NCBI GenBank assembly: GCA_041690595.1
Contig: JAWLHB010000012.1
Span: 36,785 to 100,784 of the forward strand
DNA length: 64,000 nt
Direction: 5' to 3'
Origin: Lentisphaeria bacterium
GTDB taxonomy: Bacteria > Verrucomicrobiota > Lentisphaeria > JABSQK01 > JAWLHB01
A program made the position numbers and the translations under genes. The notes under the pieces were generated by a model. The model did not search any database, had not been told where the DNA came from, and saw only the letters and a list, made by a program, of their open reading frames with translations. Shown piece after piece: positions 2,251 to 56,542 of this stretch (positions are counted from its first letter, which is position 1; each line of letters starts with the position of its first letter).

Positions 2251-3189
2251 ATGAGAATGGCGCGGATCAAGCATCGAGGCGGCGGCTGCTACTACCATCT
2301 GACAAACCGAACGGCAGGTAGCGAGAAAGACCGGCCCTTTGGTAAGGTTGAGAAGAAGAAGTTCGAGAATCAGGTGCATTCCCTGAGCACGCTGTATTCG
2401 CTGCAGGTGGTAACTCTTTGCGTCATGTGCAATCATTTTCACCTCACACTGTTTGTTCCAGGCGAACCTCCGAGCCGGAAAGAAGCCGCCCGCCGCTACA
2501 ACAAATTCTACAAGGACAGGCACCCCATCACCGCCGACTCGCCCATCGCCGCCGAACTGGCGCCGCGCCTCAATGACATCAGTCACTTCATGCACGATCT
2601 GCAGCAGCGTTTCACGGTCTGGTTCAACAAGAGCCGCCCGATCCGGCGTCGCGGCGCGCTGTGGGCCGGCAGGTTCAAGAGCGTCATCCTCCAACGCGGC
2701 ATGACCCTGTGGAACGCCATCAAGTACATCATCCTTAACCCCGTGCGCGCGAAGATGGTCAACGATCCTGCCGACTATCGCTTCAGCGACTGGGGGCATT
2801 GGCATGAAAGTGGACGACATCCCTTCGAATCCAACTTCGTGACCCACGTCTGTCGCAGCCTTGGCCATCGCGCCGATGGCTGGGATGCCAAGCGGCTTCA
2901 GTCTGAGCTGCGCACCGACCTCGCCCGCACCATGGCTGCCGACGCCGATGCCAACGCGATTCAGGCTGCCTGCGAGAGCGGAAAGAAGCGTCCGGCGCCG
3001 ATCCTGCGCGCCGATCGCCGGAATCGCTGCTGGAGCGATGGCGCGATCATCGGCGATCGGCAATTCGTCCACGAGGTAGCTGGTGCCGTCTACGGCAGCG
3101 ATGCCATCAAGAAGAAACGCCTTGGAAGCGGGCGCCTGCCCGATTCCGGCGAGCTGCTCTACAGCTTCCGCAGGCTGCGCAAGGACTGA
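2251..3189 (+). CDS. IS200/IS605-family (COG1943, RAYT-like) HuH-Y1 transposase, long form (312 aa)
   Basis: HuH motif in CNHFHLTLFVP. GALWAGRFKSVILQ and WNAIKYIILNPVRAKMVND match the Y-I-x-x-N-P-V-x-A-x-hydrophobic catalytic-Tyr helix typical of IS200/RAYT transposases. A GGGG stretch lies 9 nt upstream of the ATG. Confidence 0.75.
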   Translation: MRMARIKHRGGGCYYHLTNRTAGSEKDRPFGKVEKKKFENQVHSLSTLYSLQVVTLCVMCNHFHLTLFVPGEPPSRKEAARRYNKFYKDRHPITADSPIAAELAPRLNDISHFMHDLQQRFTVWFNKSRPIRRRGALWAGRFKSVILQRGMTLWNAIKYIILNPVRAKMVNDPADYRFSDWGHWHESGRHPFESNFVTHVCRSLGHRADGWDAKRLQSELRTDLARTMAADADANAIQAACESGKKRPAPILRADRRNRCWSDGAIIGDRQFVHEVAGAVYGSDAIKKKRLGSGRLPDSGELLYSFRRLRKD

Positions 3190-3299
3190 CGCCCGCCAGC
3201 TGAGCGGGCAGGGAGGCACGGCAGAGCAGACGACTCTCCGGGGTTGGACGGGTCAATGCCTGCTGCGTGCCCGCAGGCCACGTAAGTGCCTGTCGGGGG

Positions 3300-3890
3300 A
3301 GGACGTTCCCGGATGGGGGCACTGCCCATGGTCGGTGCCTGGCCGGGTTCTGCCGGCCACGCCAATTGAGAACGAGGTCGTCATGTGTCCGACTTCTGTT
3401 GTTGAGTGAAGTAGCGTGGTCGGGTTGAGGCGCTCAGACGAGAGGCGAAGAAGTGCCTGTGCCCGTGTTGTGCTCAGACGAGAGGCGAAGAAGCACCTGA
3501 CCCCGTGTTGAGGCGCTCAGGCGAGGGGCGTTCCGGGGGTAGGCGAGGCGAGAAGTACTTGGCGCCGGATTGAGGCGACGGGCCGAGAATTGGTAGTGAC
3601 AAGTACCTGTCCCCGGATTGAGGCGGCGGGCCGAGAATTGGTGGTCACCGCTGCGTTGCCGGGGGCACCGCAGGTGCCACTCAGGCGAGTGGCGTTCCCA
3701 GGAGGAATGGGGCACTGCCGATGATCGATGCCTGGCCCCGTTCTGAAAGCTACGCCAGTTGAGGGGGCGACCGCATCATCTGTGCAACATCCGAGGACGC
3801 AGATTGCTTGATTCGCGTGGAAGCTACCGCTGCATTGCCGAGGCGCCGCAGGTGCCACTCAGGCGAGCGGCGTTCCCAGCATGGGAGCGG
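3300..3890. repeat. Non-coding block of imperfect direct repeats: pairs of ~80-bp (3300-3395 vs 3700-3790), ~50-bp and ~35-bp segments, several carrying the hairpin GGCACCgcaGGTGCC
   Basis: Repeated strings are visible (e.g. gctcagacgagaggcgaagaag... twice; ggattgaggcgRcgggccgagaattggt twice; cgctgcRttgccgRggcRccgcaggtgccactcaggcgagYggcgttccc twice). Only short low-complexity ORFs lie here. Confidence 0.7.
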
Positions 3891-3909
3891 CGATCGAGAC
3901 TGATCCTGA

Positions 3910-4377
3910 TCAATACTGATCCTGATCGAGGAACCTGACGATTTCGCGCTGCAGCTTCGCCTGCCGTTCCGCGATTCTGTCGGCTGGCGTCTCACGGTAG
4001 ATGTCCGTGATGTCACCGGCACCCTCCTGGATGCGCTGGCACAGCTCGCGGGCGGTCAGGACGTCGCCATCGCCGAGGCCGAGGCGTTCCGCCCAACGCT
4101 GATCGAGCAGCAGGTTGTACTCGCGTTTGGAGCCAGGGGCCTGTGGACGAAAGGAGGTGTCGATCGTGTCGTCGCACAGCCCGTCGATGCTGTGGCAGCA
4201 TGGCCGGCAGATGTCATCGGCACCAAACTCCATGCGGAGTTCCACATCGCGTTCGGCGAGCACAGCCTTGGTGACGCTGTGCACTGCGTGGCCGTAGGGA
4301 TGGGGTGGCGGTGCCTCGACACCATCCCCGAAAGCCGTGATGATGTCGACGAAGTGATGTGGCTTAATAGCGATCAT
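3910..4377 (-). CDS. Cys/His-rich small protein, DUF1284-like (putative Fe-S/metal-binding)
   Basis: Translation MIAIKPHHFVDIITAFGDG...ICRPCCHSIDGLCDD. The ATG at 4377 has a GGAGGAG Shine-Dalgarno just upstream. Track ORF 3910..4413 starts further upstream at a weaker start. Confidence 0.55.
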   Translation of the reverse strand: MIAIKPHHFVDIITAFGDGVEAPPPHPYGHAVHSVTKAVLAERDVELRMEFGADDICRPCCHSIDGLCDDTIDTSFRPQAPGSKREYNLLLDQRWAERLGLGDGDVLTARELCQRIQEGAGDITDIYRETPADRIAERQAKLQREIVRFLDQDQY

Positions 4378-5537: not shown

Positions 5538-8500
5538 TCAGTTATCCAGGTTCTTGTAGTAGTCGGAGACGATACCCCTGTAGTCCTCGTCGATGTCCTG
5601 CAAGCCCGTGTCGTCGCCGGCGCTTCCGCCGGATGCCTCGCTGCTGGAGACGCTCATTGGCAGAACAGCTCCCGAAGCAAGCTCTGTCTGCGTTTCCTGC
5701 AACTGCTTCATGACGCGCTGCTGCAGGCTGGCGTATTCCTTCTGATCCTTGTCCATGCGCTCGACGCGCCGCATATCCCGGGCCGCCTCTCCCAGCGGTT
5801 CGGTATTGTTCATGTAGAGGAGTCGTGCGGTGGCGTACATGGCTTCTGTTTCCTGGCGGAGCGCCTGATTTGCGGAGGGGGCCTGCATGTGCATGTCGCG
5901 GCGCGGGGCGTTGCCGAACATCCCGATGGTTTCAGATTCGCCGCCGAGCTTGCCACCGCCGGTGGCCCGCGCATCCAGAGTCGAATCCTCGGCCTCTTCC
6001 ACCTGCCCCTTCTGCAGGGGATCATTGGTCTTGCGCGCATGCGTTTCGCGTCCTTCCAACCCCTTCACGGTGTTTTCGACAAGCTCGCCAGTAGACTGCC
6101 CTTCGCGGCCCGCGCCACTGCGGCCGGTCATCTCGTTGTCATTCGGCTTGGTGTTGCCGGACTTCCCTTTGGCCGAAAAATTGGGCATCGGCCCGTCCAT
6201 CACGCCCCACCCCATTTCGGCATCCGCCATCATCTGGTTGCCGGTACTGTCCTGGGACTGCATATCGATATCGGCCGATTGATCGAGGAGGTCGCCAACG
6301 ATGTCTTCAAGCTCTTCCGGCAGATCGACGAGAGGCATGTCGGGAAATTCGGCGGCATCGAAGCTTTCGAGATCCCACTTGATATTGTCAGGAATGTCCG
6401 GAAGCCACATTTCGACATCCTCGACACGTTCCTTGGTGTTCTTGATCGCTTCGAGCAAGCCATCTTCCTTCTGCACGGCAATCTCGACGCTGGGCGCGTT
6501 CTCGCTGTTGGCTGCCTGCTCCACGTCCTCGTACACTTCGCGCATCTTGCTGTTGAGATCGTTGCTGACCGGGAGTTCCGGGAACTGGTAGAGATCCTGA
6601 GCCATCTTCTCAATCTTCTCCTGCCACTGCTTCTGCTCCTCGTCAAGCTTCGCCAGTTCCGCCCGCACCTTGTCATCGAGATTGCCCCGGCGGGTAAGAT
6701 CCTTAGTCACTTCCACAATCTCGTTCTGGCGCTTCTCCATGTCGGCAAGCTGCTCGGCAATGTCTCGCAACGTCATCGAGGCATCGGCTATGGACTCGCG
6801 GGCCTTCTCGACGCGCCACTTGTTCATGATCTTGAGCGCTTCCGTCAGCAGGCGCAGCGCCTCTTCCTCGGCCTGGATGCCGGCGGCCCAGTTGACCTGA
6901 CTCAGCTCGTCGGCCGCGGTGAGCATCTTCTCGTAGAGTCGGCCGCTGGTGAGCAGCACATGAACGTTGGCCAACTGCCGGGCAAAGCTGTCTTCGCTTT
7001 CCGCGTTGGCCATACGCTTGACGGCTTCGATGAAGAGAATCGCTTCGTCAGCCAGTTGCTCCTGGCGCCGCACCAGGAGAGCGACACCGTCCCCCTGCAG
7101 TTCGGCCTGCATACCGCTCTTCGTATCGGCCAGAAGCTCGCGCTGACGAGCGACCATGCGCTGCAGCTGCCCCAGAAGATCCGTCTTGTCCTTGTAGGAC
7201 TGCTCGTTGGCAAGGGCCGTGGGCAGCCCCGTCAGCACAGCCAGAATGCGCGCCTGGAGGGCGATGGCTTCTGCGAGAGGCGCCATGCGCTCCCGGTCCG
7301 GCGCCCGCGTCAAGGCATCCAAGGCCGCAACCGCCTGCTGCATCTCATTGGTCTCCAGTTCCCTGAGCGTGATCAGGAGATCCCCGAGGACCGCATCGTG
7401 CGTCAGGAGTTCAGCAGCCAGCCGGCGAATCTCAACCTGGGCCACCAGAAGAGGCGCCATGGCGGCAACGTCGACAGTGCTACTGCCGCCGGCAAGCTGA
7501 GTCTGCAGTTTGCGGCTGCCGGACAGATTCTCTTTCTGGAGTTGGATCAGGCGAGCAACGGAGCGTTCGCTTTCTGCCCGTTTGCCCTGGACGGAGCGAC
7601 GCTCTTCGTCCGGCAGCGGGATGACGATATCCATGAGCCGTGAAGCTCCCTGCCGTGCCTCGGCGGCAGGTCCGGCATCACGCGCCAGGAGGCGGAAACG
7701 CAGGCGGGAACCAGCTTTCGCCCCCAGCGCCGCCAGGTCGACTGCGAAATGGCCACGCATCTCCCGGCGAAGCTCGTCATTGCGCTCGACCGCAATCTCC
7801 TGATCGGCCCCATCCTTCTCCACGCGTACACAGAGGACAGACGCAACGCCGTACTCGTCGCGCGCCACGAAAGGCAAGGCGATGCGCTCGCCGGGCGCCG
7901 CGGTGATCTGGCGCAGGTCGGTGGCAAAGTCGACCGTCGGCCCGAGGTCGGGCAGGATGGTCAACGGCAGAGGAATGCGGGCATCGAGTCCCGCCGTCGA
8001 TACCAACCTCAACTGAAGTGGAGCGGTGCCCGGCACCGGGAAGGTGACACGAAAATCGGCGGCATCGGCCACGGCAGCAGCCTGAAGCTCGCGTCCATCC
8101 TGCAGCACGACGACCTGGCGAAGAGGCTGGGAGGACTTGCCGGTGAGCTGTACCTCCGCGCCCACGGGAATCCCCCCCTCCGGCTGCTCCGAGCTGAGCC
8201 TGCGTCGCGGCAGAGAGGTATAGGCAGGCGGTTGCACGTCCGCCGCCCAGTTCACCAGGGAAGGCGGACTCTGCACGCCGATTGTGAAGCGGGGGGAGCG
8301 GGCATCATTGGCAATGAACCAGTAGGTGGTGCTGTCGAAAAGCAGGGGAGTCTCGGCGGTGAAGCTCAGGGGCTCTCCGTCGACGGCAACGAGCATGATC
8401 TGCTTTGCCTCGCCACGCTCCGGTTGCACGACCAGCATCGGCTTGCGCGGCACTTTCCCTTCCAGGCGAACGCGAATGAGAGCCTTTTCTCCACGTGGGA

Positions 8501-42511: not shown

Positions 42512-43213
42512 TTACAGGCGCGGCTTGTCCTGCGTATTCAGCCGCTTCATGCCCCCCACCCGCTCTGCCTCTTCGATCATCTCGCCCGCCTCCAGCGTCA
42601 AATCATGCCGCGGCCAGCGCTTGATAAACTCATCCAGATACTTGATCGTCAGTTCCACATCCTTGGTATCGAAGTAGACTTTGCCAAGGTAGAAGTAGGA
42701 TAACGCCTGTTCCTCCTCCGGAAGCTGATCGAGAGAGTTCTCCAGCAGTGAAATAGCCTCCTCGGGCCGCCGATAGACGATATGGATGCGCGCCGCCAGG
42801 ATCACCATTTTCGGCGCATACTTCTGATCCAGCAAGATGCCGGTGTAGGTGTTCTCAACCGCCATGATCATCAACTGCGGCAGATACGCAGCGGCGACAC
42901 CCGCCAAAAGAATGCCGAAGAGCAGGAGTCGCTTGATCAAGCGCTTGACCCGCAGCTGCATGTCATAGCGGCTGCGTTCACGCTTGCGCCGCCCCCGCGC
43001 CGTGGCGATACCCTCGTCCTCCACCATCGTCATTTCGGCCAAGTCGGGCTCCGCCGTCATCGGCATCGGCGCCGTGCGGGAGGCGCAGCTTTTGCACATG
43101 TACTTGCTGCCGCGATAGGTCATGCACCTCTCGCAGTAAGCCGCTCCGCACTTCGGGCACACCCCCACCGCCGGATACTGCTTGTGATTCAGACAACTGG
43201 TTAACGACGGCAT
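42512..43213 (-). CDS. Zinc-ribbon membrane protein with TPR-like C-terminal region (hypothetical)
   Basis: CPKCGAAYCERC...CKSC zinc ribbon, one TM helix (LLLFGILLAGVAAAYL). Confidence 0.6.
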   Translation of the reverse strand: MPSLTSCLNHKQYPAVGVCPKCGAAYCERCMTYRGSKYMCKSCASRTAPMPMTAEPDLAEMTMVEDEGIATARGRRKRERSRYDMQLRVKRLIKRLLLFGILLAGVAAAYLPQLMIMAVENTYTGILLDQKYAPKMVILAARIHIVYRRPEEAISLLENSLDQLPEEEQALSYFYLGKVYFDTKDVELTIKYLDEFIKRWPRHDLTLEAGEMIEEAERVGGMKRLNTQDKPRL

Positions 43214-45510: not shown

Positions 45511-46779
45511 TCAGAACTTGTAGATCGCGTCCATCTGGTAGAGGTTCGCCTCATTCTCCCCCTCGATTTGCTCGAGAAGCATGGCCGTGGCACCTAGTGA
45601 GAAGTTCTTGGTGAGCTTGTAGCTGGCGCTCAACTTGTGGCCTTCCACATTCGTGTTGTAGAGCCCGGCGGTATCGCCGAAGTCGGAATCCTTGAGGAAA
45701 GGCGGCGCCGAATCGGCCTCCACATAGCCGTAGGCATAGCCCAGGCTCCAACTGCCGACCTTTGCGCCGATGCCGGCCGTCCAACCCAGATCCTCATCTT
45801 CAGGCGTCAACCCTGACACATTGCTGGCAGTGCCGTCCGCGCCAAAGTTGCTCCAGACGTCGCCGAAGAGCGACAGGGTCGCCTTGTCCAGCTTCAGCGA
45901 AAGCTCCCCGTACAGGTCGCCGATATGGTAGTCATACTCCGAACTGAACGGCGTGAGCAGCTCGCTGGTCTGCGCATCATAGTAGTAGTATGCCGCCGCA
46001 ACCTTCGCCTTCATACCCTTGCCAAGATCGCCACCCCAGCCGAGCTGCGCTGCCACCAGCGATGCATTGTCGCCGTTGCTGTCGCCGTTATCGCTGGCAT
46101 AGAGCACCTTGTATGCGCCCATCGTGGCAAAGAACCCGGCCATGTCACCAGTCACCGTTGCGCCAGCGGGCCGGACATCGCCGTCCCAAAGCAGAAATGA
46201 CGAGACAAAGGGGTTCGACTGCTGGCCCAGGATCACCGCCACCTTGCCGTCATCACCCTTCCACGTGTGCTTCGCATAGGCATAGTCGATCCGCAGGTCG
46301 CCGGTATCGAAGGGGCCACTGTCCGACCAAGTGTCGTTTGTACTCGTCGCGTCCGATCCGCCCGACGCCACCCCGACCCCGATCTCCCAGCCTTCCTCGG
46401 CGGCCCAAACGCCCCCAAGCCGGAGCCGGGTACGGAAGCGATCGCGAGTCGTCTCCGTGCTCTTGTCCACATCCCGTGCCTCATACCGCAGGCGAAGATC
46501 GCCCTTGATCTTCAGATTCGAGATGTGATCGCTCAGCTTGATGCCCCCGCCACTGCTACGCTGCGAAGGATCCACCGCCCGATCCACTTCCTCGCGGATC
46601 TGTCGCGAAAGCTGACCCTGATTCTCATTGAGCTGTCGACGCATGCTCTGGATCTCCGACTGCTGCTGCCGGATCTCCTGTTGCATCTGCTCGATCTTCT
46701 TCAGGATCTCATCATTCTCAATCGCCCACAACGAGGCGCTCAGCGCCAAGGTCACAGTCAGTACAAAAAATCTCTTCAT
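45511..46779 (-). CDS. Outer-membrane beta-barrel porin-like protein with N-terminal Gln-rich coiled coil
   Basis: Signal peptide MKRFFVLTVTLALSASLWA, alternating amphipathic beta-strand pattern, C-terminal aromatic residue (…IYKF). Confidence 0.6.
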   Translation of the reverse strand: MKRFFVLTVTLALSASLWAIENDEILKKIEQMQQEIRQQQSEIQSMRRQLNENQGQLSRQIREEVDRAVDPSQRSSGGGIKLSDHISNLKIKGDLRLRYEARDVDKSTETTRDRFRTRLRLGGVWAAEEGWEIGVGVASGGSDATSTNDTWSDSGPFDTGDLRIDYAYAKHTWKGDDGKVAVILGQQSNPFVSSFLLWDGDVRPAGATVTGDMAGFFATMGAYKVLYASDNGDSNGDNASLVAAQLGWGGDLGKGMKAKVAAAYYYYDAQTSELLTPFSSEYDYHIGDLYGELSLKLDKATLSLFGDVWSNFGADGTASNVSGLTPEDEDLGWTAGIGAKVGSWSLGYAYGYVEADSAPPFLKDSDFGDTAGLYNTNVEGHKLSASYKLTKNFSLGATAMLLEQIEGENEANLYQMDAIYKF

Positions 46780-47214
46780 GATTTTCCCTCACTCCTTAAG
46801 GTATTACCGAGATGATCTTCACAACACCCTCGCCTCTCAACTGGGGTTTGACGAGCCCCCGCACGTTCCACACCAGCCTCCCTTGGTTTCGCGTTCCACT
46901 GCATCTGGTTCAGCAAACGAGTATACCCTAAGGCTCTCTCAGCACTCCCGCTCGGCGCTACGGTTAAGACCCCGTAAAGATCCCGCTAATCCCCCATTTG
47001 CCCCTCACCCAGCATTGCTCCAACGGAAGGAGGAGGACACTCGACAACCGCAACAGGCACTCAAACATCCTGTACATTTCGATGTTCTTCAAGCGTCAAC
47101 GGACAGGACACCCACTTTGATCCCCTGAGCGTGAGAAATTGGGTGCTCTGCTGGTTTCTTCTGGAACGCAACCTATACTAAACGTCGTTGAAGCATCCAC
47201 ACTATAACGAGAGC

Positions 47215-48270
47215 ATGAACATGGCAATTGGTCATCTGGAGGCCAGACTATTCACCGTTTTCTCGAAGATCGACTTGGACTTCTCTCCCGGTATCAACGT
47301 CATCATCGGAGAGAATAGCACGGGCAAATCACACCTGATGAAATTGCTTTACGCCGTGAGCCAAGTGCTCTTCACCTCCGAGAAAGAAGGTGAGCGCAAG
47401 CTGCTTGAAGCCGAACTCCACAAGAAACTGGTGAACACGTTTAAGCCGGATGAGGGAAAGCTGGGGCGGCTTGTGCAACGTAGCCGTGGTCGAGCCACAG
47501 CGAGAATGAATATCAGGTTCGGCACTGGTGGTTTCAGCTTTCGATACACCACGCTCTCCAATCTTGCCATTGAGCAGGTCGGTGCAAGACAAGAGGATAA
47601 TCCTATCTTCATACCCTCTCGGGAGGTCCTTGCCATCTACCCCGGCTTTGTGCAAGCCTACGAGAATCGGGAACTGGCATTCGATGAAACGTACCGGGAC
47701 ATATGCGTCGCGTTGAGCGGCTCCCTTACGCGAGGCCCACGGCAAGAGAAGATCCAGGACCTCGTATCGCCACTTGAAAAGCGTCTCGGTGGTAAGGTCG
47801 TACTGGACAACGATCGCTTCTTCGTCAAGGCCAGAGATGGTAATATCGAGGCACACTTGCTCGCGGAAGGTCTTCGCAAGCTCGCCAGTATAGTCTTCCT
47901 CATCAACAATGGCTCGCTCACCGAGCGCAGTATTCTTTTCTGGGACGAACCGGAAGCCAATTTGAATCCCACCCTCGTCAAGCTGCTCTGCGATGTCCTG
48001 CGCCAGCTTGCCAATAGCGGCATGCAAATTTTCCTCGCTAGCCACGATTACCTGCTCACTCAGGAGCTGGCCTTGGCATCCGAGTACAAGACAGAGCCCC
48101 ATGTGCCAATCCGCTTCTTTGCCCATAGCCGCAACGCAGAGGGCCACGTTGACATAGAACAAGCCGATGATCTCGCCGAGTTACGTAACAACGCCATTCT
48201 GGAGGAGTTCGCCGCACACTACGACCGGGAAGCCATGCTCTTTGCAGAACGTGCGGAGGTCCAGAGATGA
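47215..48270 (+). CDS. AAA_21/ABC-type (SMC/RecF-like) ATPase of the kind found in abortive-infection/defence modules
   Basis: Walker A GENSTGKS, signature-like LAEGLRKL, Walker B SILFWDEPEANLNP, H-loop IFLASHD. The track ORF starts at TTG 47188. ATG 47215 or 47221 is more likely. Visibly lower G+C than the flanks. Confidence 0.7.
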   Translation: MNMAIGHLEARLFTVFSKIDLDFSPGINVIIGENSTGKSHLMKLLYAVSQVLFTSEKEGERKLLEAELHKKLVNTFKPDEGKLGRLVQRSRGRATARMNIRFGTGGFSFRYTTLSNLAIEQVGARQEDNPIFIPSREVLAIYPGFVQAYENRELAFDETYRDICVALSGSLTRGPRQEKIQDLVSPLEKRLGGKVVLDNDRFFVKARDGNIEAHLLAEGLRKLASIVFLINNGSLTERSILFWDEPEANLNPTLVKLLCDVLRQLANSGMQIFLASHDYLLTQELALASEYKTEPHVPIRFFAHSRNAEGHVDIEQADDLAELRNNAILEEFAAHYDREAMLFAERAEVQR

Positions 48271-48842
48271 GCCAGGAAATAGTCGAAAAGCAGATAAAGT
48301 ACGTCTTTGGGGATTCCTGGCGAATTTTTAAGTACGACGAGCATCCTTTTTATACCGGCCGGCTGGTTCCACTAGCGGGAAAGGTCAAGAAGAAGACCGT
48401 CTCCACCACCGGCATCGATCTTGCTGGAAGCTGCGGCAATCGTCTATTCCTAGTCGAAATCAAGGATTTCGCAGGATTTCCACGTGAGCGAGCACGCATC
48501 ACCAGCGGCGAACTGGCACTGGAAATCGCCATCAAGGTGCGTGACTCCATCGCCGGCCTGATCGCCGGGGCTCACCACCCCAACTGCAAGCCTCACAAGA
48601 CATGGGAGGCCGTCGCTGATCACCTCTGCAACGCTCCCCACGCCATTCAAATTATTCTTTGGCTCGAGGTCGACATGCTGCCACCAGCCCTCAAGCATAA
48701 GCAGATGATGAGCACCTTTGGCAACCAGCTCAAGCAAAACATTCGCAATTGGTTACCAGCTAGCGTCTTCGTGCTCAATTTGCAGACGTACGAATCCATA
48801 ATACCAGACATGGAAGCTTTCCGCTTGAGCATGCCGGGATGA
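48267..48842 (+). CDS. Small (191 aa) protein of unknown family with a PD-(D/E)xK-like motif (putative nuclease partner of the ATPase)
   Basis: Start overlaps the ATPase stop (ATGA). TGIDLAGSCGNRLFLVEIKDF gives D-x12-E-x-K spacing typical of restriction-endonuclease-fold nucleases, with an upstream acidic YDEH. I recognised no other family. Confidence 0.5.
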   Translation: MSQEIVEKQIKYVFGDSWRIFKYDEHPFYTGRLVPLAGKVKKKTVSTTGIDLAGSCGNRLFLVEIKDFAGFPRERARITSGELALEIAIKVRDSIAGLIAGAHHPNCKPHKTWEAVADHLCNAPHAIQIILWLEVDMLPPALKHKQMMSTFGNQLKQNIRNWLPASVFVLNLQTYESIIPDMEAFRLSMPG

Positions 48843-48944
48843 ACTGGCCACTTTCGAATCGGCCAATACCAGCATCGCGAAACTGTCGGCAAAACTTCAT
48901 CGTAGTGTTTGACCTGCAACTCGCAGAAGATGCGATCTTTCGGC

Positions 48945-50312
48945 TCAGGAGCCTGTGCGCTTTGCGAGGCGGAGGGTGAAGGTGGAACCCTTTTCGAGCT
49001 GGCTTTCGACGGTGACGGTGCCACCGTGGACGCGCATGATGTGTTTCACGATCGACAAGCCAAGGCCGGTGCCGCCGCTCTGCCGGTCGCGGGATCGGTC
49101 CACGCGGTGAAAGCGCTCGAAGATGCGCTCCAAGTGTTCGCGGGGAATGCCGATGCCTTCGTCGCGCACCGTCAGGACGGCATGCTGCTGCTCCTCGCGC
49201 AGGCGAATCGTCACGGTCGCGCCATCCGGGCTGTACTTCACCGCATTGTCGATCAGATTGGCGATGGCCTGCTCGAGGAGGCGATGATTTGCGTAGACCT
49301 GGCATGGATCCAGCTCGACGATGGCGGCGATATTGCGCTCGCGCATCTTCGCTTCGTAAGGGCGCAGGGCATTGGCTGTCGTCACGGCCAGATCCTTCCG
49401 CTCGAACTCCTGGGCCACCCATCGGTCGGCTTGCTCCAGGCGCGAGAGGGTCAGCAGGTCATCGACGATGGCGTTGAGGCGCTCCGCCTGCTGCGCGATA
49501 ATGGTGACGAAGCGCATGGCCTGCTCGGGCGCCCCCTCCAGGCAGCCGCCCAGAGTTTCGATGAAGCCCTTGATGGAGGTGATCGGCGTTTTCAGCTCGT
49601 GGGAGACATTCGCCACGAACTCTTTGCGCATCTCTTCGAGGCGGCGCACCCGGGTGACGTCGTGCATCACCACCAGCGCTCCGGGGGCGGCCCCCTGCTC
49701 ATGGACGAATCGTACACCCGATAGCCGATAGACCGTGACAACGTCCGCCGTACCGCGAACCTCCATCTCCTGCTGCAGGTGATCGGCACCCTCCGTAAGC
49801 AGCTCATCGACGAAGTGGGTAAAGGTGGCATTGCGCACCACGGAAAAGAGGGGTCGTCCGGCAATGGATTCCTCATCGGACAAGCCGAAATAGAGATGGG
49901 CCGCCTGGTTCATCGCCAGGAGGTTCACCTCGTTATCGACCGCCAGAATGCCTTCTCGCATACCGGTGAAGAGGGCGATCCACTGCTGCTTCTCCAGTTG
50001 GAGATCGCTCACCTGGGTCTCCAGCGCTTCCGCCATCTCGTCGAAGGCAGCGGTCAAGGGAGCCAGCTCCAGCCACGGATTGGCCGGACTTCGCGCGCGC
50101 CAATCCCCCTTTCCCAGGCGCAGCAGCCGATCCTCGAGTTGCGCCTGCCAGTAGGTCAGGAGCCGGATCAGGAGGAGACTGACGAGCAAAATGCCGATAA
50201 TCGCCGTCACCGCCCCGATGAAGGGGCTCCAGAACAAGGCGCAGCCGCCCGCCAGCAGCAGAACCAGCAGGAGTCGATTCGCCAACCACCAGTATAGGGA
50301 TTGCCTGCGCAT
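48945..50312 (-). CDS. phoR: Phosphate-regulon sensor histidine kinase
   Basis: TM-PAS-HisKA (VANVSHELKTPITSIKGF)-HATPase. Immediately downstream of phoB/phoU/pst genes. Confidence 0.8.
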   Translation of the reverse strand: MRRQSLYWWLANRLLLVLLLAGGCALFWSPFIGAVTAIIGILLVSLLLIRLLTYWQAQLEDRLLRLGKGDWRARSPANPWLELAPLTAAFDEMAEALETQVSDLQLEKQQWIALFTGMREGILAVDNEVNLLAMNQAAHLYFGLSDEESIAGRPLFSVVRNATFTHFVDELLTEGADHLQQEMEVRGTADVVTVYRLSGVRFVHEQGAAPGALVVMHDVTRVRRLEEMRKEFVANVSHELKTPITSIKGFIETLGGCLEGAPEQAMRFVTIIAQQAERLNAIVDDLLTLSRLEQADRWVAQEFERKDLAVTTANALRPYEAKMRERNIAAIVELDPCQVYANHRLLEQAIANLIDNAVKYSPDGATVTIRLREEQQHAVLTVRDEGIGIPREHLERIFERFHRVDRSRDRQSGGTGLGLSIVKHIMRVHGGTVTVESQLEKGSTFTLRLAKRTGS

Positions 50313-50315
50313 GAA

Positions 50316-51011
50316 TCAATCCTTGAACCTGTAGCCGACTCCCCGGACCGTTTCGATCACCACTGCGTGATCGCCCAGTTTACGCCTCAGGGAGACGATG
50401 TGGACATCCACCGTTCGCTCGGTGATCAGGACGTCCTCGCCCTGCGCCTCGTCGATGATGCGCTGCCGTGTGTAGACACGCCCTGGGTTGGACGCCAGGA
50501 AGCGCAGGATCTTGAACTCGATCGGCGTCAAACAGGCTTCCTGTCCATGTACCAGCACTTCGTGCCGATTGGGGTTGATGGTGATGCTGCCGCGCGTCAG
50601 CACCGGCTGATCCTCGGTCGACGCGGGCTCACTCTCGGCCCGACGCCGCAGGACCGCCTTGAGGCGCGCCAGGAGCACCCTAGGGCTAAATGGCTTGGTG
50701 ACATAGTCATCGGCCCCGACTCCCAGCCCGATCACCTCATCCGTCTCCTCGCTTTTCGCGGTCAGCATGACTACCGGAACTCGCTTCAGGCGGTCGTCGC
50801 TGCGCAGCTTGTAGCATACCTGATAGCCATCGATGCCGGGCAGCATGAGGTCGAGGATGATCAGATCGGGTGGGTGGGCCTGGGCCAGGCGCAGGCCAAG
50901 CTCGCCATCGCCAGCCAGCTCCACGTCATAGCCGTCATTCTCCAGATTGAATTTGAGCAGCTCGCGGATCGACTCTTCGTCTTCAACGACCAGCACTCTG
51001 GTTTTTGCCAT
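50316..51011 (-). CDS. phoB: Phosphate-regulon response regulator (OmpR/PhoB winged-helix)
   Basis: Receiver (VLVVEDEESIRELL...DLIILDLMLPGIDG) plus OmpR-type C-terminal domain (…VSLRRKLGDHAVVIETVRGVGYRF). Confidence 0.8.
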   Translation of the reverse strand: MAKTRVLVVEDEESIRELLKFNLENDGYDVELAGDGELGLRLAQAHPPDLIILDLMLPGIDGYQVCYKLRSDDRLKRVPVVMLTAKSEETDEVIGLGVGADDYVTKPFSPRVLLARLKAVLRRRAESEPASTEDQPVLTRGSITINPNRHEVLVHGQEACLTPIEFKILRFLASNPGRVYTRQRIIDEAQGEDVLITERTVDVHIVSLRRKLGDHAVVIETVRGVGYRFKD

Positions 51012-51716
51012 CTATCCCTCCCTTGCCTGCCGTCTGGGCAGGTCATTCCTGTTGTTCTCGTCTTCCAGATGGTGACGAATGATGCGTCCTTCCACCATGT
51101 AGAAGACATCCTCCGCGATATTGGTGGCATAGTCGGCGATACGCTCAACGCTGCGGGAGACAGAGATCAGGAAAAGATAAGCCGGCGCGTTCTCCGGCTC
51201 CGCGATCACCTGCCGCCGAAGCCCGTGGATCAACTCCACATTCAATTCATCAATAGCGTCATCCTGCCGGCAGACCTGCCGCGCCAGGGTTGAATCCGCA
51301 TTGACCATCGCATTCAGGCTGAGCCGCACCTGGTTGAGTGCCTTGGTGAAAATGGTGCGAAAACGATCGGGCACCGTGACTGGATCGAGCTTGGCGATCT
51401 CGATCACGTACTCGGCGATGTTGACCGACAGATCCCCCATCCGCTCCAGGTCGTTGTTCATCTTGAGGACCCCGACCACCATGCGCAGATCGGCGGCCAC
51501 CGGCTGATAGAGCGCCATGATCTTCAGGCAGTCCTCCTCGATGTCCACCTCCAACTCGTCAATCACGGTATCGTTGGCGACGACCGCCCGGGCCTTGGCG
51601 GTATCGAGATCGGCCAGGGCCTCGTAACTCAGTTCGATGCTCTGCTCCACCTCGGCGCTAAGCTCGACGATGCGCTTCTTGAGCTTAGTGGTTTCGCGCT
51701 GCAAATGTGTTATCAT
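51012..51716 (-). CDS. phoU: Phosphate-transport system regulatory protein PhoU
   Basis: Two PhoU repeats (…DDAIDELNVEL…, …DLERMGDLSVNIAEYV…). Confidence 0.85.
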   Translation of the reverse strand: MITHLQRETTKLKKRIVELSAEVEQSIELSYEALADLDTAKARAVVANDTVIDELEVDIEEDCLKIMALYQPVAADLRMVVGVLKMNNDLERMGDLSVNIAEYVIEIAKLDPVTVPDRFRTIFTKALNQVRLSLNAMVNADSTLARQVCRQDDAIDELNVELIHGLRRQVIAEPENAPAYLFLISVSRSVERIADYATNIAEDVFYMVEGRIIRHHLEDENNRNDLPRRQAREG

Positions 51717-51737
51717 GCCATATCTACCTTGTGAGGG

Positions 51738-52523
51738 TTATCCAAAGCGTCCAGAGATGTAGTCTTCCGTCTGTCTCTCGCCGGGATTGCGGAAGATCTT
51801 CTCGGTGAAATCGTACTCGATGAGCTTGCCCAAGTAAAAGAATGCGGTACGATCGGAAACGCGTGATGCCTGCTGCATGTTGTGCGTCACAATAACGATG
51901 GTAAAGTCTTGCTTCAACTCCAGGATGAGTTCCTCGATGCGACTGGTGGCGATGGGATCGAGGGCGCTGCATGGTTCGTCCATGAGAACGATCTCGGGCT
52001 CGTTGGCAATCGCTCTTGCGATGCAGAGGCGCTGCATCTGCCCGCCCGACATGCTCAGCGCGCTCTCGTCCAGCCGGTCTTTGACCTCGTCCCAGAGAGC
52101 TGCCGAACGCAGGCTGCGCTCGACGACCTCGTCCAGATCGCGCTTCTGTTTGCGACCGGCCACCCGCAGCCCGAAGACCACATTTTCATAGATCGACTTG
52201 GGAAAGGGATTCGACTTCTGGAAGACCATCCCCACCCGTCGGCGCAGCCCGATGACATCACGCAGTGGATCGTAGACGCTGTGCCCGTTGATCAGAATAT
52301 CCCCGTGATGATGAACCCCGTCGATCAGGTCGTTCATGCGGTTAATGCTCCGCAGCAGGGTAGATTTACCGCACCCGGACGGGCCGATGAAGGCGACGAT
52401 TTCGCGCTCCGGAATCTTCAGATTGTTCCCGAAGAGAACCTGATTATCGCCGTACCAGAAGTCGTAGTTCTGGATATCGATGATCGGGTTCTCGATGGTG
52501 GTTGCCGCACTCTTGTTGATCAT
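51738..52523 (-). CDS. pstB: Phosphate ABC transporter ATP-binding protein
   Basis: [25 protein letters not shown]-type signature, Walker B. ATG 52523 with upstream GGAG preferred over 52556. Confidence 0.9.
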
Positions 52524-52536
52524 GCTTGTAACTCCG

Positions 52537-54246
52537 TCAAAAAGCGCTGGTTGCATACTTGCGCCGCAAGTGTTCTCGAATGATGATGGCGGTCAGGTTG
52601 AGCACCACCACCAGCGCGATAAGCAGAAGCGCCGTCGCGAAAACCATGGGTTTGGCCGCCTCGGCGTCAGGTGATTGAAAACCGAGATCGTAGATGTGAA
52701 AGCCCAGGTGCATGAACTTCTGGTCGAGGTGGATAAACGGATAGTTGCTGTTGACGGGCAGTTCCGGGGCAATCTTCACCACGCCTACCAGCATCAGCGG
52801 CGCCACCTCGCCCGCGCCGCGGGCCATGGCCAGAATGACGCCGGTCAGGACGCCGGGCGCCGCCGCCGGCAGAACGACCCGCTGAATGGTCTGCCAACGC
52901 GAAGCGCCGCAGGCCAGGGCGCCTTCCCGCGTTCCCCGCGGCACCGCCGCCAGCGCTTCCTCCGAGGCGACGATGACCACTGGCACCGTCAGCAGCGCCA
53001 GCGTCAGCGAGGCCCAAAGAATGCCTCCCGTGCCGAAGGTGGCGGTCGGCAGCCGGTCCGCATAGAACAGCTCGTCGATCGTACCACCCATCCCCCAGAC
53101 AAAGAAGCCGAGTCCGAAGACACCGAAGACGATCGAGGGCACGCCAGCCAGATTGTTGATGGCGATGCGTACCATGGCGACCATCGTCCCCTGTTTGGCA
53201 TACTCCCGCAGGTAGATCGCGGCCACCACCCCGAAAGGGGTCACCAGCATGCTCATCAGTACCGTCATCACGAAGGTACCGAAGATAGCCGGCCAGATGC
53301 CCCCTTCGGTATTCGCCTCCCGCGGCTCCTCCGAGACGAAGCGCCATATCTGCCAGAGGAAGTGGCCCAGCCGCTGCAGCAGGTTCATCTCGTTCGGGTA
53401 GGTGTAGTCGATCACCTCCCCCATGCTGATCTCGTGTTCGCCACCGCTGACCAGCCGATAAACCAGCCGCTGCCGGTTCAGCTTTTCGCGTAATTCTTTC
53501 AATTGCGCTTCGAGGACCTCGAACTCCACCTGCAACGCGGCCAGGCGGGCTGTCAGCGCCTCCCGTTTCGGCGTGTCGGTCGCACCGCCCGATGCCTCGG
53601 CACGATTCATGGAGCGCAGCTCCAGGTTGATCGCGGTCATCGCCGTATTGATGCGGCCGATCTCCTTTCGATCCAGCTGGTGAATCTGCCGCCGCCCATC
53701 GCTCACCTCATCCAGTGCCGCCGCCAGCGCCTCGCGAAAGCCGTCCGACGCGGCTTTTATCTCGGTGCCGTCAGCCGAACGCAGGGCCACGGGCAACGCG
53801 AGCACATCGCCATACTCAGCCCGTTCGATGGCGATGGCATCCGGCAGCAGTTCCATCTCCGCGATGAAGCTGGTGTCAATCCAGATAAAGGAGCCGTCAT
53901 AGAGCTCGCGGCTGCCAATGAAGAACTGCGTCTCTTTCTGAGCGGGAGCGAGATCTCCTTGCGCATCCATCTCCCGGCTCATCTTCCGGCGGCTCTCCAC
54001 GAGCACTCCCGCGAAGCGCGGCTCCTCGCCGAATCGTCGCTGCAGCGCCGTCAGCACCGGCTCTGGAAGATCCTTCGCCAGTTCCACGGCCATGATCGGC
54101 TTCGGCCAGAAGACGTTGAGCCCCTTGACGACGATCAGCCCCAGCATCAGGACAATCATGAGCAGCCCGATCGTGATGCCCATCGACGTCAGCCATACCC
54201 AGGCTTCCCCCTTCGGCTGAACCAACTGTTTGCCTTTCTCAGTCAT
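52537..54246 (-). CDS. pstA: Phosphate ABC transporter permease PstA, long form with N-terminal coiled-coil/periplasmic insertion
   Basis: C-terminal region matches PstA (…[17 protein letters not shown]…). ATG 54246 with GGGAG 7 nt upstream chosen. Confidence 0.8.
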
Positions 54247-54265
54247 ACAATCTCCCGCCCCGAAG

Positions 54266-56542
54266 CTAGATAGTCTTGTACTTGCCACGCAGGTGCTGAC
54301 GCAGCAGCTCTGCCATGGTATTGACGATGAAGGTCATGAGGAAGAGCAGAAATCCACCCAGAAAGAGTGTGCGGTAGAGGGTTCCTTCTTTCGGCGCTTC
54401 CGGCAGCTCGACGGCGATATTGGCGGAGAGCGTGCGCATGCCCGAGAAGATGTTGAGGTCGAGGAGCGGGGTATTGCCCGTCGCCATCAGGACAATCATG
54501 GTCTCGCCAACCGCCCGCCCCAGGCCGATCATAATCGCGGAGAAGATGCCCGCCGACGCGGTGGGCAGCACCACCCTTAACGCCGTCTGCCAGCGACTAG
54601 CGCCCAATGCCAGCGAGGCGCTGCTCAGGCTCCGCGGCACGTTCGACAGCGCATCCTCCGCGATGGTGAAGATGATCGGGATGACGGCGAAACCCATGAT
54701 AAAGCCGACCACCAGCGCATTGCGCTGCTCGAAGCGGTTCCCCGTCACCGCCGGCCACCAGAGTCGGAAATCAGCCACCTTCCGCCCGGCGTCCGTCTCG
54801 ATGACGAAAAAGATGCGCTCGATGACGGGTCCCAGATACCAGGCCGCGATCCAGGTCAGCACCAGGATCGGCAGAAAGCCGATGAACTCGAATCCATCGG
54901 GACAAAGCAGGCGTGTCCGCTTTGGCAGCCTTGACCAGAGCGCGCCAGAGAACATCGCTACCACGGGTATCGCGATCACGAAGAGCAGAAAGCTCGGCAC
55001 CCGCGTCTCGACGATCGGCGCCAGCCACAGCGCCGCCAGAAAACCCAGGACTACCGACGGCAGCGACGCCATGATCTCCATCGTCGGCTTCACGTAGCTC
55101 TTGAATTTGGGATGTTGAAACTGGGAGACGTATATCGCCCCCAGCAGCGCTATCGGCACCGCGAAGAGCAGCGCGTAGATCGTCCCCTTGAAGGTCCCGA
55201 CGATCAGCGGTATCATCGACAACTTCGGCTCGAAATCGTCGCTCGCGCCCGTTGACTGCCATTTGTACTCGGGCTCGGGATTTCCTTCGTACCAGATGCG
55301 GCTGAAGTAGGCGGCGAAGCCGGCTTCCGGATGGGGATCGTTCAGCGAGAAGAGGTGCAAGTTGGACTGATTATCGAGCAGCAGGATCCTGTCGTACTTG
55401 CCGGAGACTGCCGCCAGCCGCGGCTCATAGTCGAGCCGCTTCTTCCAGCGAACGGATGCCGTCGTCGCATAACGCAGGCTCACCTGGTTGCCATGGCCGA
55501 TAAGGAAGCCCTTGTTCCGCAAGCTTTTGGCGTAGACACTGGGCGCCCCTTCCAGCGGCGGAAACTCCTTCGTCTTTCCCCAGAGCATCTTGCCGACATC
55601 GTCGTGCATATAGAGGCTGAAGCCATAGCTCACCCCGTCGCTGTTGGTGAAGAGCACCGTCGTGTCGCCGAAGAGAAAGTTCATTTTTGCCAGCGGGGCA
55701 GCGTCGCTGCCCTCGAAGGGGCGAATCAGTTGCCGCAGCTCCACTTCGCCCGCCACAAACTGGAAGTAAGCCACCTCGTCGCGATCGTTCCGCACAAGGA
55801 TGCTGCGCCCATTCTGGCTGACCAGCACCTCTTGCGGCACACCGGGCAGCTCCGCCGTCAGATCCATCATCAGGCCGACTTCGATCTCCCCCGGCCCCAT
55901 CAGCGACATCGTCTGCGTCAGGGTGGCCATACGCAAGTGCCTCTCTCCGTCCGCGCCTTCCGTGATGCCGACGATCACCTTGCTCCGATCGGCCCCCGCA
56001 TAGGCGATCGCCAAAATCGCCTCGCCCCGCTCCCCCAGCGGATACATGTTGCCGGGCCGAAGCTCGACATCCACAACCCGGCTGCCTGTCGAGAAGTTGG
56101 CCGAGTAGACGATGTCCACGATGACGAACTCACCCAGCGCCGTTCCGTAGATCAACTGCTGCGTCTCCTGCCCATACGTCACCGAGGTCACCTGGTGATC
56201 GCGGAGGAAGTCAAGCTCTGGAACCAGCGTTTCCGTCCCTTCGTCGAGTCCCGGAAAGAGCAGCCGACCATCCCGGCGAAGAACGAAGGGCCGCTCGGTC
56301 CATTCATCCACGCCCAGCGCCAGGTAATCACCCGGGGGGATGGCCGCGGTGCGCAGTTCCTTGATCTGCGCACCGCGGAAGAGCGGCAGAATTTCAAGCA
56401 GGATGAAGACGAAGATGAGCATCACGGTGAGGATAACCAGAAGACCGCCCGCGCGGATGAACTGGTTCATGAACTTGTCCGCCATCAGCGTCACCTTCGA
56501 CGCCGCGAAGCGGTTCTCCCATTGCTTGTCTCGCTTCATCAT
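54266..56542 (-). CDS. pstC: Phosphate ABC transporter permease PstC, long form (~758 aa) with large extracytoplasmic insertion
   Basis: C-terminal permease core (…GLGRAVGETMIVLMATGN…) is typical of PstC. The N-terminal half is an extra beta-rich domain. Confidence 0.8.
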   Translation of the reverse strand: MMKRDKQWENRFAASKVTLMADKFMNQFIRAGGLLVILTVMLIFVFILLEILPLFRGAQIKELRTAAIPPGDYLALGVDEWTERPFVLRRDGRLLFPGLDEGTETLVPELDFLRDHQVTSVTYGQETQQLIYGTALGEFVIVDIVYSANFSTGSRVVDVELRPGNMYPLGERGEAILAIAYAGADRSKVIVGITEGADGERHLRMATLTQTMSLMGPGEIEVGLMMDLTAELPGVPQEVLVSQNGRSILVRNDRDEVAYFQFVAGEVELRQLIRPFEGSDAAPLAKMNFLFGDTTVLFTNSDGVSYGFSLYMHDDVGKMLWGKTKEFPPLEGAPSVYAKSLRNKGFLIGHGNQVSLRYATTASVRWKKRLDYEPRLAAVSGKYDRILLLDNQSNLHLFSLNDPHPEAGFAAYFSRIWYEGNPEPEYKWQSTGASDDFEPKLSMIPLIVGTFKGTIYALLFAVPIALLGAIYVSQFQHPKFKSYVKPTMEIMASLPSVVLGFLAALWLAPIVETRVPSFLLFVIAIPVVAMFSGALWSRLPKRTRLLCPDGFEFIGFLPILVLTWIAAWYLGPVIERIFFVIETDAGRKVADFRLWWPAVTGNRFEQRNALVVGFIMGFAVIPIIFTIAEDALSNVPRSLSSASLALGASRWQTALRVVLPTASAGIFSAIMIGLGRAVGETMIVLMATGNTPLLDLNIFSGMRTLSANIAVELPEAPKEGTLYRTLFLGGFLLFLMTFIVNTMAELLRQHLRGKYKTI

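Follow-up and report, generated by a model that had tools for sequence, protein, structure and literature searches.

A pair of overlapping genes in a 64,000-nucleotide stretch of DNA from a Lentisphaeria bacterium (GenBank assembly GCA_041690595.1, contig JAWLHB010000012.1, positions 36,785 to 100,784; hereafter the window) is probably a horizontally acquired anti-phage cassette of the HEC-02 type, consisting of an OLD-like ABC ATPase and a small PD-(D/E)xK protein (Table 1). HEC-02, or Hma-embedded candidate 02, was discovered inside Hachiman systems as an ABC ATPase together with a NERD-like PD-(D/E)xK protein, HEC-02B, carrying a (D/E/Q)xK motif (Payne, Hughes, Fineran, Jackson, bioRxiv 10.1101/2024.01.29.577857). 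In that study, several phages plaqued on E. coli with an efficiency lower by orders of magnitude when the HEC-02 pair of Dickeya dianthicola NCPPB 3534 was present, and the defence needed both genes (their Fig. S3). Judging from sequence comparison, the window pair is a divergent new copy of this already described system. A previous interpretation of the window, made from its letters without database searches (the sequence-only reading), had described the small gene as the partner of the ATPase, with a nuclease-like motif and a possible metal site, and had missed that the pair corresponds to a described, experimentally validated defence system.

Both window proteins are homologous over their full length to the HEC-02 proteins. 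The ATPase matched the PADLOC HEC-02A model PDLC04213 with an E-value of 1.1e-98 (residues 12–349 on positions 1–330 of 337), and the small protein matched the HEC-02B model PDLC04228 at 7.7e-18 (residues 5–182 on positions 3–195 of 199) and a further PADLOC HEC-02 model at 7.8e-17. When compared by BLASTP with the tested Dickeya pair (WP_024108366.1 and WP_024108365.1, taken from the supplementary table of Payne et al.), the ATPase aligned end to end with HEC-02A (37% identity, E 6e-74), and the small protein aligned with HEC-02B at 28% identity (E 9e-17), with an identical D-x12-ExK spacing. The family profile of the small protein aligned to the Dickeya HEC-02B with a probability of 99.8% in hhalign. 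The two-gene architecture and its order are also the same, the ATPase gene coming first and the adjacent small gene following on the same (+) strand with a 4-nt overlap, and the ATPase motifs are intact. By analogy with this homologue at 28–37% identity, the window pair would be expected to provide a phage defence that needs both genes.

Beyond the low identities, the window copy differs from the Dickeya pair in several respects. The small protein is 22 residues longer than the Dickeya HEC-02B (169 amino acids) and contains a Lys-rich hairpin insertion (residues 38–45) and a His/Cys-rich stretch (residues 103–125). The Dickeya protein has a His at the position of the family W18, with W132 and W162 replaced as well. 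Unlike the original HEC-02, the cassette has no Hachiman or other defence system around it and lies instead between a porin gene and phoR; such embedding was a criterion of discovery and is not required by the PADLOC model. In PADLOC, the names of PDLC04145 and PDLC04146 are swapped with respect to the other HEC-02 models: PDLC04145, called "HEC-02A", matches the small protein with the nuclease fold, and PDLC04146, called "HEC-02B", matches the ATPase. The Dickeya HEC-02B WP_024108365.1, a 169-aa protein of the nuclease fold, carries the RefSeq name "cysteinyl-tRNA synthetase", which is evidently an annotation error.

The two genes are tightly linked. As the sequence-only reading had seen, the small gene starts in the last codon of the ATPase gene, its ATG (48267–48269) overlapping the ATPase stop TGA (48268–48270). 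This ATGA overlap and an internal Shine-Dalgarno sequence suggest that the ATPase and the small gene are translationally coupled. The "stoichiometric co-expression" proposed earlier goes too far, as such coupling does not fix a stoichiometry.

The pairing is conserved in all 14 other loci that we examined (L001–L009 and L090–L094; Planctomycetota, Myxococcota, Desulfobacterota, Thiomargarita, Verrucomicrobiota, a cyanobacterial plasmid and a Methylomonas plasmid), where the ATPase gene is followed directly on the same strand by a gene for a partner of 165–197 amino acids. The junction is a 4-nt overlap in L001, L003, L004–L006 and L008 and ranges elsewhere from a 14-nt overlap to a 14-nt gap, and the genes around the pair differ in each locus. 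This constant pairing, often with the same overlap, and the need for both genes in Dickeya bear out the small protein as an obligate genomic partner of the ATPase. On the Methylomonas koyamae plasmid pLM6 (L090:8998–10613), the pair is found within a BREX-1 operon, between brxC and pglX, and its partner protein is homologous to the small-protein family of the window (hhalign, 96.7%). This location agrees with a 2026 survey (PMC12839542), in which dyads of an OLD-type ABC ATPase and a PD-(D/E)xK nuclease are backup effectors in BREX loci. A second gene, annotated "PDDEXK nuclease domain", lies between pglX and pglZ in the same pLM6 operon. In Desulfonema ishimotonii (BEXT01000001.1, L008:3925–5546), an HEC-02-like pair is located inside a type II secretion/pilus-type operon, which is not a defence operon, flanked by a T2SSE ATPase gene (2387–3922) and a T2SSF gene (5606–6835). 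The pair with the second-closest ATPase (58% identity), from a Verrucomicrobiota metagenome-assembled genome (CAYZLQ010000264.1, L093:202–2681), adjoins JetD_C/DUF2399 and AAA_14/DUF4143 genes, a neighbourhood that may be a small defence island.

The open reading frame (ORF) of the small protein and its D-x12-ExK motif are present where the sequence-only reading had placed them: the segment TGIDLAG holds D51 (48417–48419), and the segment VEIKD holds E64 (48456–48458) and K66 (48462–48464). Alone, the motif is no evidence of function, because a relaxed form, D-x(8-30)-[DE]xK, occurred in 56% of shuffled versions of the protein, while the exact spacing occurred in 3%. Its meaning comes from the conservation of D51, E64 and K66 in homologues. 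When 1.84 billion representative sequences were searched exhaustively with the small protein by phmmer, 461 relatives were obtained at E ≤ 1e-3, of which 134 also passed E ≤ 1e-10; the nearest was 42% identical. Opposite-strand ORFs overlapping the gene (48350–48550, 48450–48737 and 48647–49024) were dismissed, since it is the + strand frame that has these 461 homologous representatives. In an alignment of 130 full-length relatives, 26–37% identical to the window protein, E64 was conserved in 130/130, K90 in 129/130, D24 and D51 in 128/130 each, D93 in 124/130, K66 in 119/130 (Thr in the remaining 11), D67 in 116/130, E7 in 115/130, E134 in 111/130 and R92 in 108/130; F14, W18 and W162 were conserved too. 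The D-x12-ExK motif was likewise invariant in an alignment of 13 partner proteins that included the validated Dickeya protein.

Table 1 Positions of the cassette and its features in the window.
Feature	Position	Strand	Basis
HEC-02A-type ABC (OLD-like) ATPase gene, 349 aa	47221..48270	+	PADLOC, Pfam, homologue alignment
HEC-02B-type small gene, PD-(D/E)xK (NERD-like/DUF6661-related) nuclease-fold protein, 191 aa	48267..48842	+	ATG start
ATGA start/stop overlap, translational coupling	48267..48270	+	read from sequence
GGAGG Shine-Dalgarno of the small gene, 7 nt upstream of its ATG and still inside the ATPase gene (3′ end)	48255..48259	+	read from sequence
D51-x12-E64-x-K66 catalytic-type motif on beta-hairpin 52–56/59–67; D67 also conserved	48417..48464	+	conservation, AlphaFold2 strands
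K90-V-R92-D93 motif, long helix following the ExK strand, role inferred	48534..48545	+	conservation in the 130-relative alignment; model helix 82–103
Lys-rich 8-residue insertion G38-V45 (GKVKKKTV), extra beta-hairpin	48378..48401	+	gaps in the 130-relative alignment; model strands 37–40, 43–46
Lineage-specific His/Cys cluster H103, H104, C107, H110, H119, C121, H125 (HHPNCKPH...HLC...H)	48573..48641	+	read from sequence
Low-GC stretch, two-gene cassette and upstream intergenic region, GC 0.51–0.55 against 0.60–0.68 in the flanks	46600..48999	.	composition profile

The relationship of the small protein to named families was found to be indirect. DUF6661 (PF20366), whose members have a similar size (~180–200 amino acids), was matched by 65/130 of the aligned relatives (best 9e-10) and is precomputed on many of the database relatives. 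The window protein did not match it at E ≤ 1, which places this protein beyond the reach of the current DUF6661 model, and the relationship suggested by these profile searches is transitive only. No mention of DUF6661 was found in the literature searched. NERD (PF08378) was matched weakly by 24/130 relatives (best 1.1e-4), and three relatives carry the UniRef name "NERD domain-containing protein"; the window protein had no NERD match at E ≤ 1 and is therefore NERD-like but no formal member of the NERD family. In a word-indexed protein search, the small protein matched itself only. It matched nothing in PHROGs, nor did a tblastn search find it in the phage and plasmid collections, and an exact DNA search of species-representative genomes gave no match. 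The Lys-rich insertion was gapped in 111–114 of the 130 relatives. The partner proteins that also carry it are those of the nearest ATPase relatives alone (L092, L093, L094, L001 and L004), so that it marks a subclade; it possibly contacts nucleic acid.

The structure of the small protein was predicted by AlphaFold2 using the alignment of the 130 relatives, with high confidence (predicted local distance difference test score 93.9, predicted template modelling score 0.89). In the model, three strands are followed by helix 27–33, the inserted hairpin 37–40/43–46 and the hairpin 52–56/59–67, then by helices 72–80, 82–103 and 111–122, strand 127–134, helix 141–160 and strands 166–170 and 182–186. 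It contains the alpha-beta-beta-beta-alpha-beta core of the PD-(D/E)xK superfamily; D51 directly precedes strand 52–56, and E64 and K66 lie within strand 59–67, the canonical placement. The PD-(D/E)xK reading proposed earlier is thus supported by a restriction-endonuclease-like fold with D, E and K conserved on the expected strands. Its author had named an incompatible predicted fold as the result that would speak against it, and the model shows the opposite, as it matches the restriction-endonuclease-like core. D51, E64 and K66 would form a metal-dependent phosphodiesterase site.

Structural comparison of the model returned the Upx restriction endonuclease (7.5), N.BspD6I (7.5), FokI (6.8), AF1548 (5.9) and an XisH-like protein (5.7), with BstEII, Hna, Can2, Card1, NucS, HamA, SduA, McrC and RecB further down. 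Foldseek gave weak matches, headed by Can2 (E 0.023) and then HamA (E 0.026), and so did a viral fold library, in which the best match was an uncharacterised Salmonella phage protein (E 1.6e-3) and other endonuclease-like proteins had E > 0.01. Sequence searches of the PDB with the protein or its family profile gave nothing meaningful, the weak matches to FtsX and HlyU being attributable to chance. The model thus resembles solved structures remotely at best, none of which belongs to a close relative. The NERD-related nucleases Can2 and Card1 and the Hachiman protein HamA, which are among the best structural matches, share the restriction-endonuclease-like core with a D...ExK motif, and all three are defence effectors restrained by a partner domain or protein.

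The second claim made for the small protein from its sequence, that the Cys/His stretch of its C-terminal half is a possible metal site, was not supported by the comparison with relatives. A functional metal (e.g. Zn) site, serving catalysis, folding or regulation, might be suspected because the clustering is non-random within the window sequence: 7/10 of the Cys and His residues of the protein fall within 23 residues, a degree of clustering matched in 128 out of 200,000 shuffles (the 23-residue span having been chosen post hoc). In the model, the cluster occupies the end of helix 82–103, loop 104–110, helix 111–122 and the following loop (H125), and with H103, H104, C107 and H110 at the helix end and in the next loop, a local chelate would be geometrically conceivable. 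However, conservation is lacking at all seven positions. Arg occupies position 103 in 95/130 relatives and His in 19, while at the other six positions Cys or His reaches at most 13/130; H104, H119 and C121 are shared by 6/130, 9/130 and 13/130, respectively, and C107, H110 and H125 are outside the six commonest residues at their positions. Relatives have on average 1.5 and at most 5 Cys or His residues in this stretch, against 7 in the window protein, and neither the validated Dickeya protein nor the proteins paired with the closest ATPases (L092, L093 and L094) have the cluster. It also falls in one of the less confident regions of the model (residues 101–150, 10-residue block means of 86–91 against 94–97 over most of the protein). 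We consider a metal site unlikely; the cluster decorates a variable helix-loop-helix at the surface of this one protein, has no part in the family mechanism and is no guide for experiments on the HEC-02B family. It is very unlikely that this HEC-02B has gained a second control, in which the His/Cys cluster next to the catalytic sheet (H103, H104, C107 and H110, perhaps joined by H119 and C121) would bind metal or sense redox while the Lys-rich 38–45 hairpin served as an additional arm for nucleic-acid binding; if it had, it would represent a subtype with a nuclease gated by both the ATPase and the cellular metal or redox status.

The other half of the proposed HEC-02 cassette, the ATPase, has more than 4,400 relatives at E ≤ 1e-10. 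In an alignment of 43 homologues including the Dickeya HEC-02A (numbering of the 349-aa form), Walker A G35/K36, the signature-like E216-G217-x-R219-K220, Walker B D242/E243 and the H-loop H275 were invariant. Its Pfam matches were AAA_21, AAA_15 and SMC_N, and its PADLOC matches to AriA, GajA and Old ranged from 1e-18 to 1e-8. Three start codons can be considered: TTG 47188 for the mechanically called ORF; ATG 47221, which is favoured by the homologues, the PADLOC models and an NCBI-derived 349-aa entry; and ATG 47215 as a third candidate.

The composition of the locus fits horizontal acquisition, given the low GC content of the cassette, and a tblastn search with the ATPase found relatives on 10 plasmids. 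By Pfam, the flanks encode Porin_5, a heparinase II/III-like protein, a PhoR-like kinase, a PhoB-like regulator, PhoU and PstB-like proteins; no notable direct or inverted repeats, Rfam RNAs or mobile-element genes flank the cassette, and no promoter or terminator near it was convincing beyond chance. No GTDB species representative exceeds 39% identity to the PhoR-like kinase, which indicates that the host lineage is poorly sampled and makes a syntenic comparison with an empty site impossible. The phosphate-regulon-type genes (PhoR-like, PhoB-like, PhoU and PstB-like by Pfam) run from 48945 to 56542 on the − strand, convergent to the cassette, and include permease ORFs of 583 and 758 amino acids that we take, by eye only, to be PstA and PstC. 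Elsewhere in the window, a gene at 42512–43213 (−) encodes a protein of 233 amino acids that has a double CxxC motif (CPKCGAAYCERC...CKSC) at its N-terminus, is predicted to contain a membrane segment and carries a TPR-like region towards its C-terminus; it had no Pfam match at E ≤ 1e-5.

The AAA_21 match, a family labelled "putative AbiEii toxin", together with the low-GC, horizontally acquired character of the cassette, the presence of ATPase relatives on plasmids and the toxin-antitoxin genes near the pair in L091 and L009, could suggest a toxin-antitoxin or addiction module that stabilises mobile DNA. This is quite unlikely, as the Dickeya pair gave phage-specific protection with both genes present, and the cassette lacks flanking mobile-element genes or repeats. 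Moreover, the best ATPase models are those of HEC-02 (1e-98), against 1e-18 for AriA; because the HEC-02 models are the best by far, the AAA_21 label reflects the shared ABC fold and not orthology to AbiEii.

Several points weigh against an HEC-02 nuclease cassette. The literature searched contained no assay of biochemical activity for any HEC-02B and no mechanistic paper on HEC-02 later than that of Payne et al., who left sensing and the role of ATP to be determined. The window small protein is divergent, its nearest relative being 42% identical and the tested Dickeya protein 28%, and matches no Pfam or NCBIfam model. K66 is replaced by Thr in 11/130 relatives, and the cassette lies outside any defence island, between a porin gene and pho/pst genes. 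Some of these points would also suit a catalytically inert nuclease-fold adaptor, a sensor or scaffold, with the ATPase or an unlinked host factor as the true effector: the lack of an activity shown for any family member, the ExT in place of ExK in those 11 relatives, and a likeness to active nucleases that is structurally distant. However, D51, E64, K66 and D67 are near-invariant in 130 relatives at 26–37% identity, as under active-site purifying selection, and the ATPase has no other effector domain by Pfam, making an inert adaptor highly improbable. A housekeeping DNA repair or recombination module, pairing a Rad50/RecF-like ATPase with an Hjc/NucS-like structure-specific nuclease, is extremely improbable given the patchy distribution and unrelated neighbourhood at every locus, the atypical GC content, the pair inside BREX, the validated phage-defence phenotype of the Dickeya pair, and Rad50/RecF matches limited to ~45 residues of the P-loop region. 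The AbiEii-type toxin, the Rad50/RecF repair pair, the inert adaptor and the Cys/His metal-site protein were all rejected on these points.

For an HEC-02-type defence cassette, a mechanism can be proposed by analogy with PARIS, Gabija, Lamassu and Hachiman. The ATPase and the small protein, made together via translational coupling, would form a complex in which the ATPase might act as an infection sensor or gate responding to a phage cue. The small protein would be the nuclease effector, released or activated upon this cue, and the activated nuclease could then cut nucleic acid, most likely DNA, and halt the replication of the phage, possibly at the expense of the cell. An ABC ATPase sensor with a separately encoded nuclease effector is also the layout of PARIS (AriA/AriB), Gabija (GajA/GajB) and the BREX pairs of an OLD-ABC ATPase and a PD-(D/E)xK restriction endonuclease, the latter as presented in the survey PMC12839542, where Krishnan et al. 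2020 is cited. The putative effector of the window differs from those of PARIS and Gabija in having a PD-(D/E)xK and not a TOPRIM fold, and its ATPase is much shorter (349 amino acids) than GajA or Old and resembles AriA of PARIS in the ATPase motifs only.

With the window, the known HEC-02 cassettes gain a divergent member from a bacterial lineage that has been poorly sampled. It stands alone in a housekeeping neighbourhood, which fits the remark of Payne et al. that, for most such candidates, there is no enrichment in the vicinity of other defence genes. What the ATPase senses and what the nuclease targets are questions for HEC-02 as a whole rather than for this locus, and the alignment of the 130 relatives singles out D24, D51, E64, K66, D67, K90 and D93 as the targets for mutagenesis in any family member.

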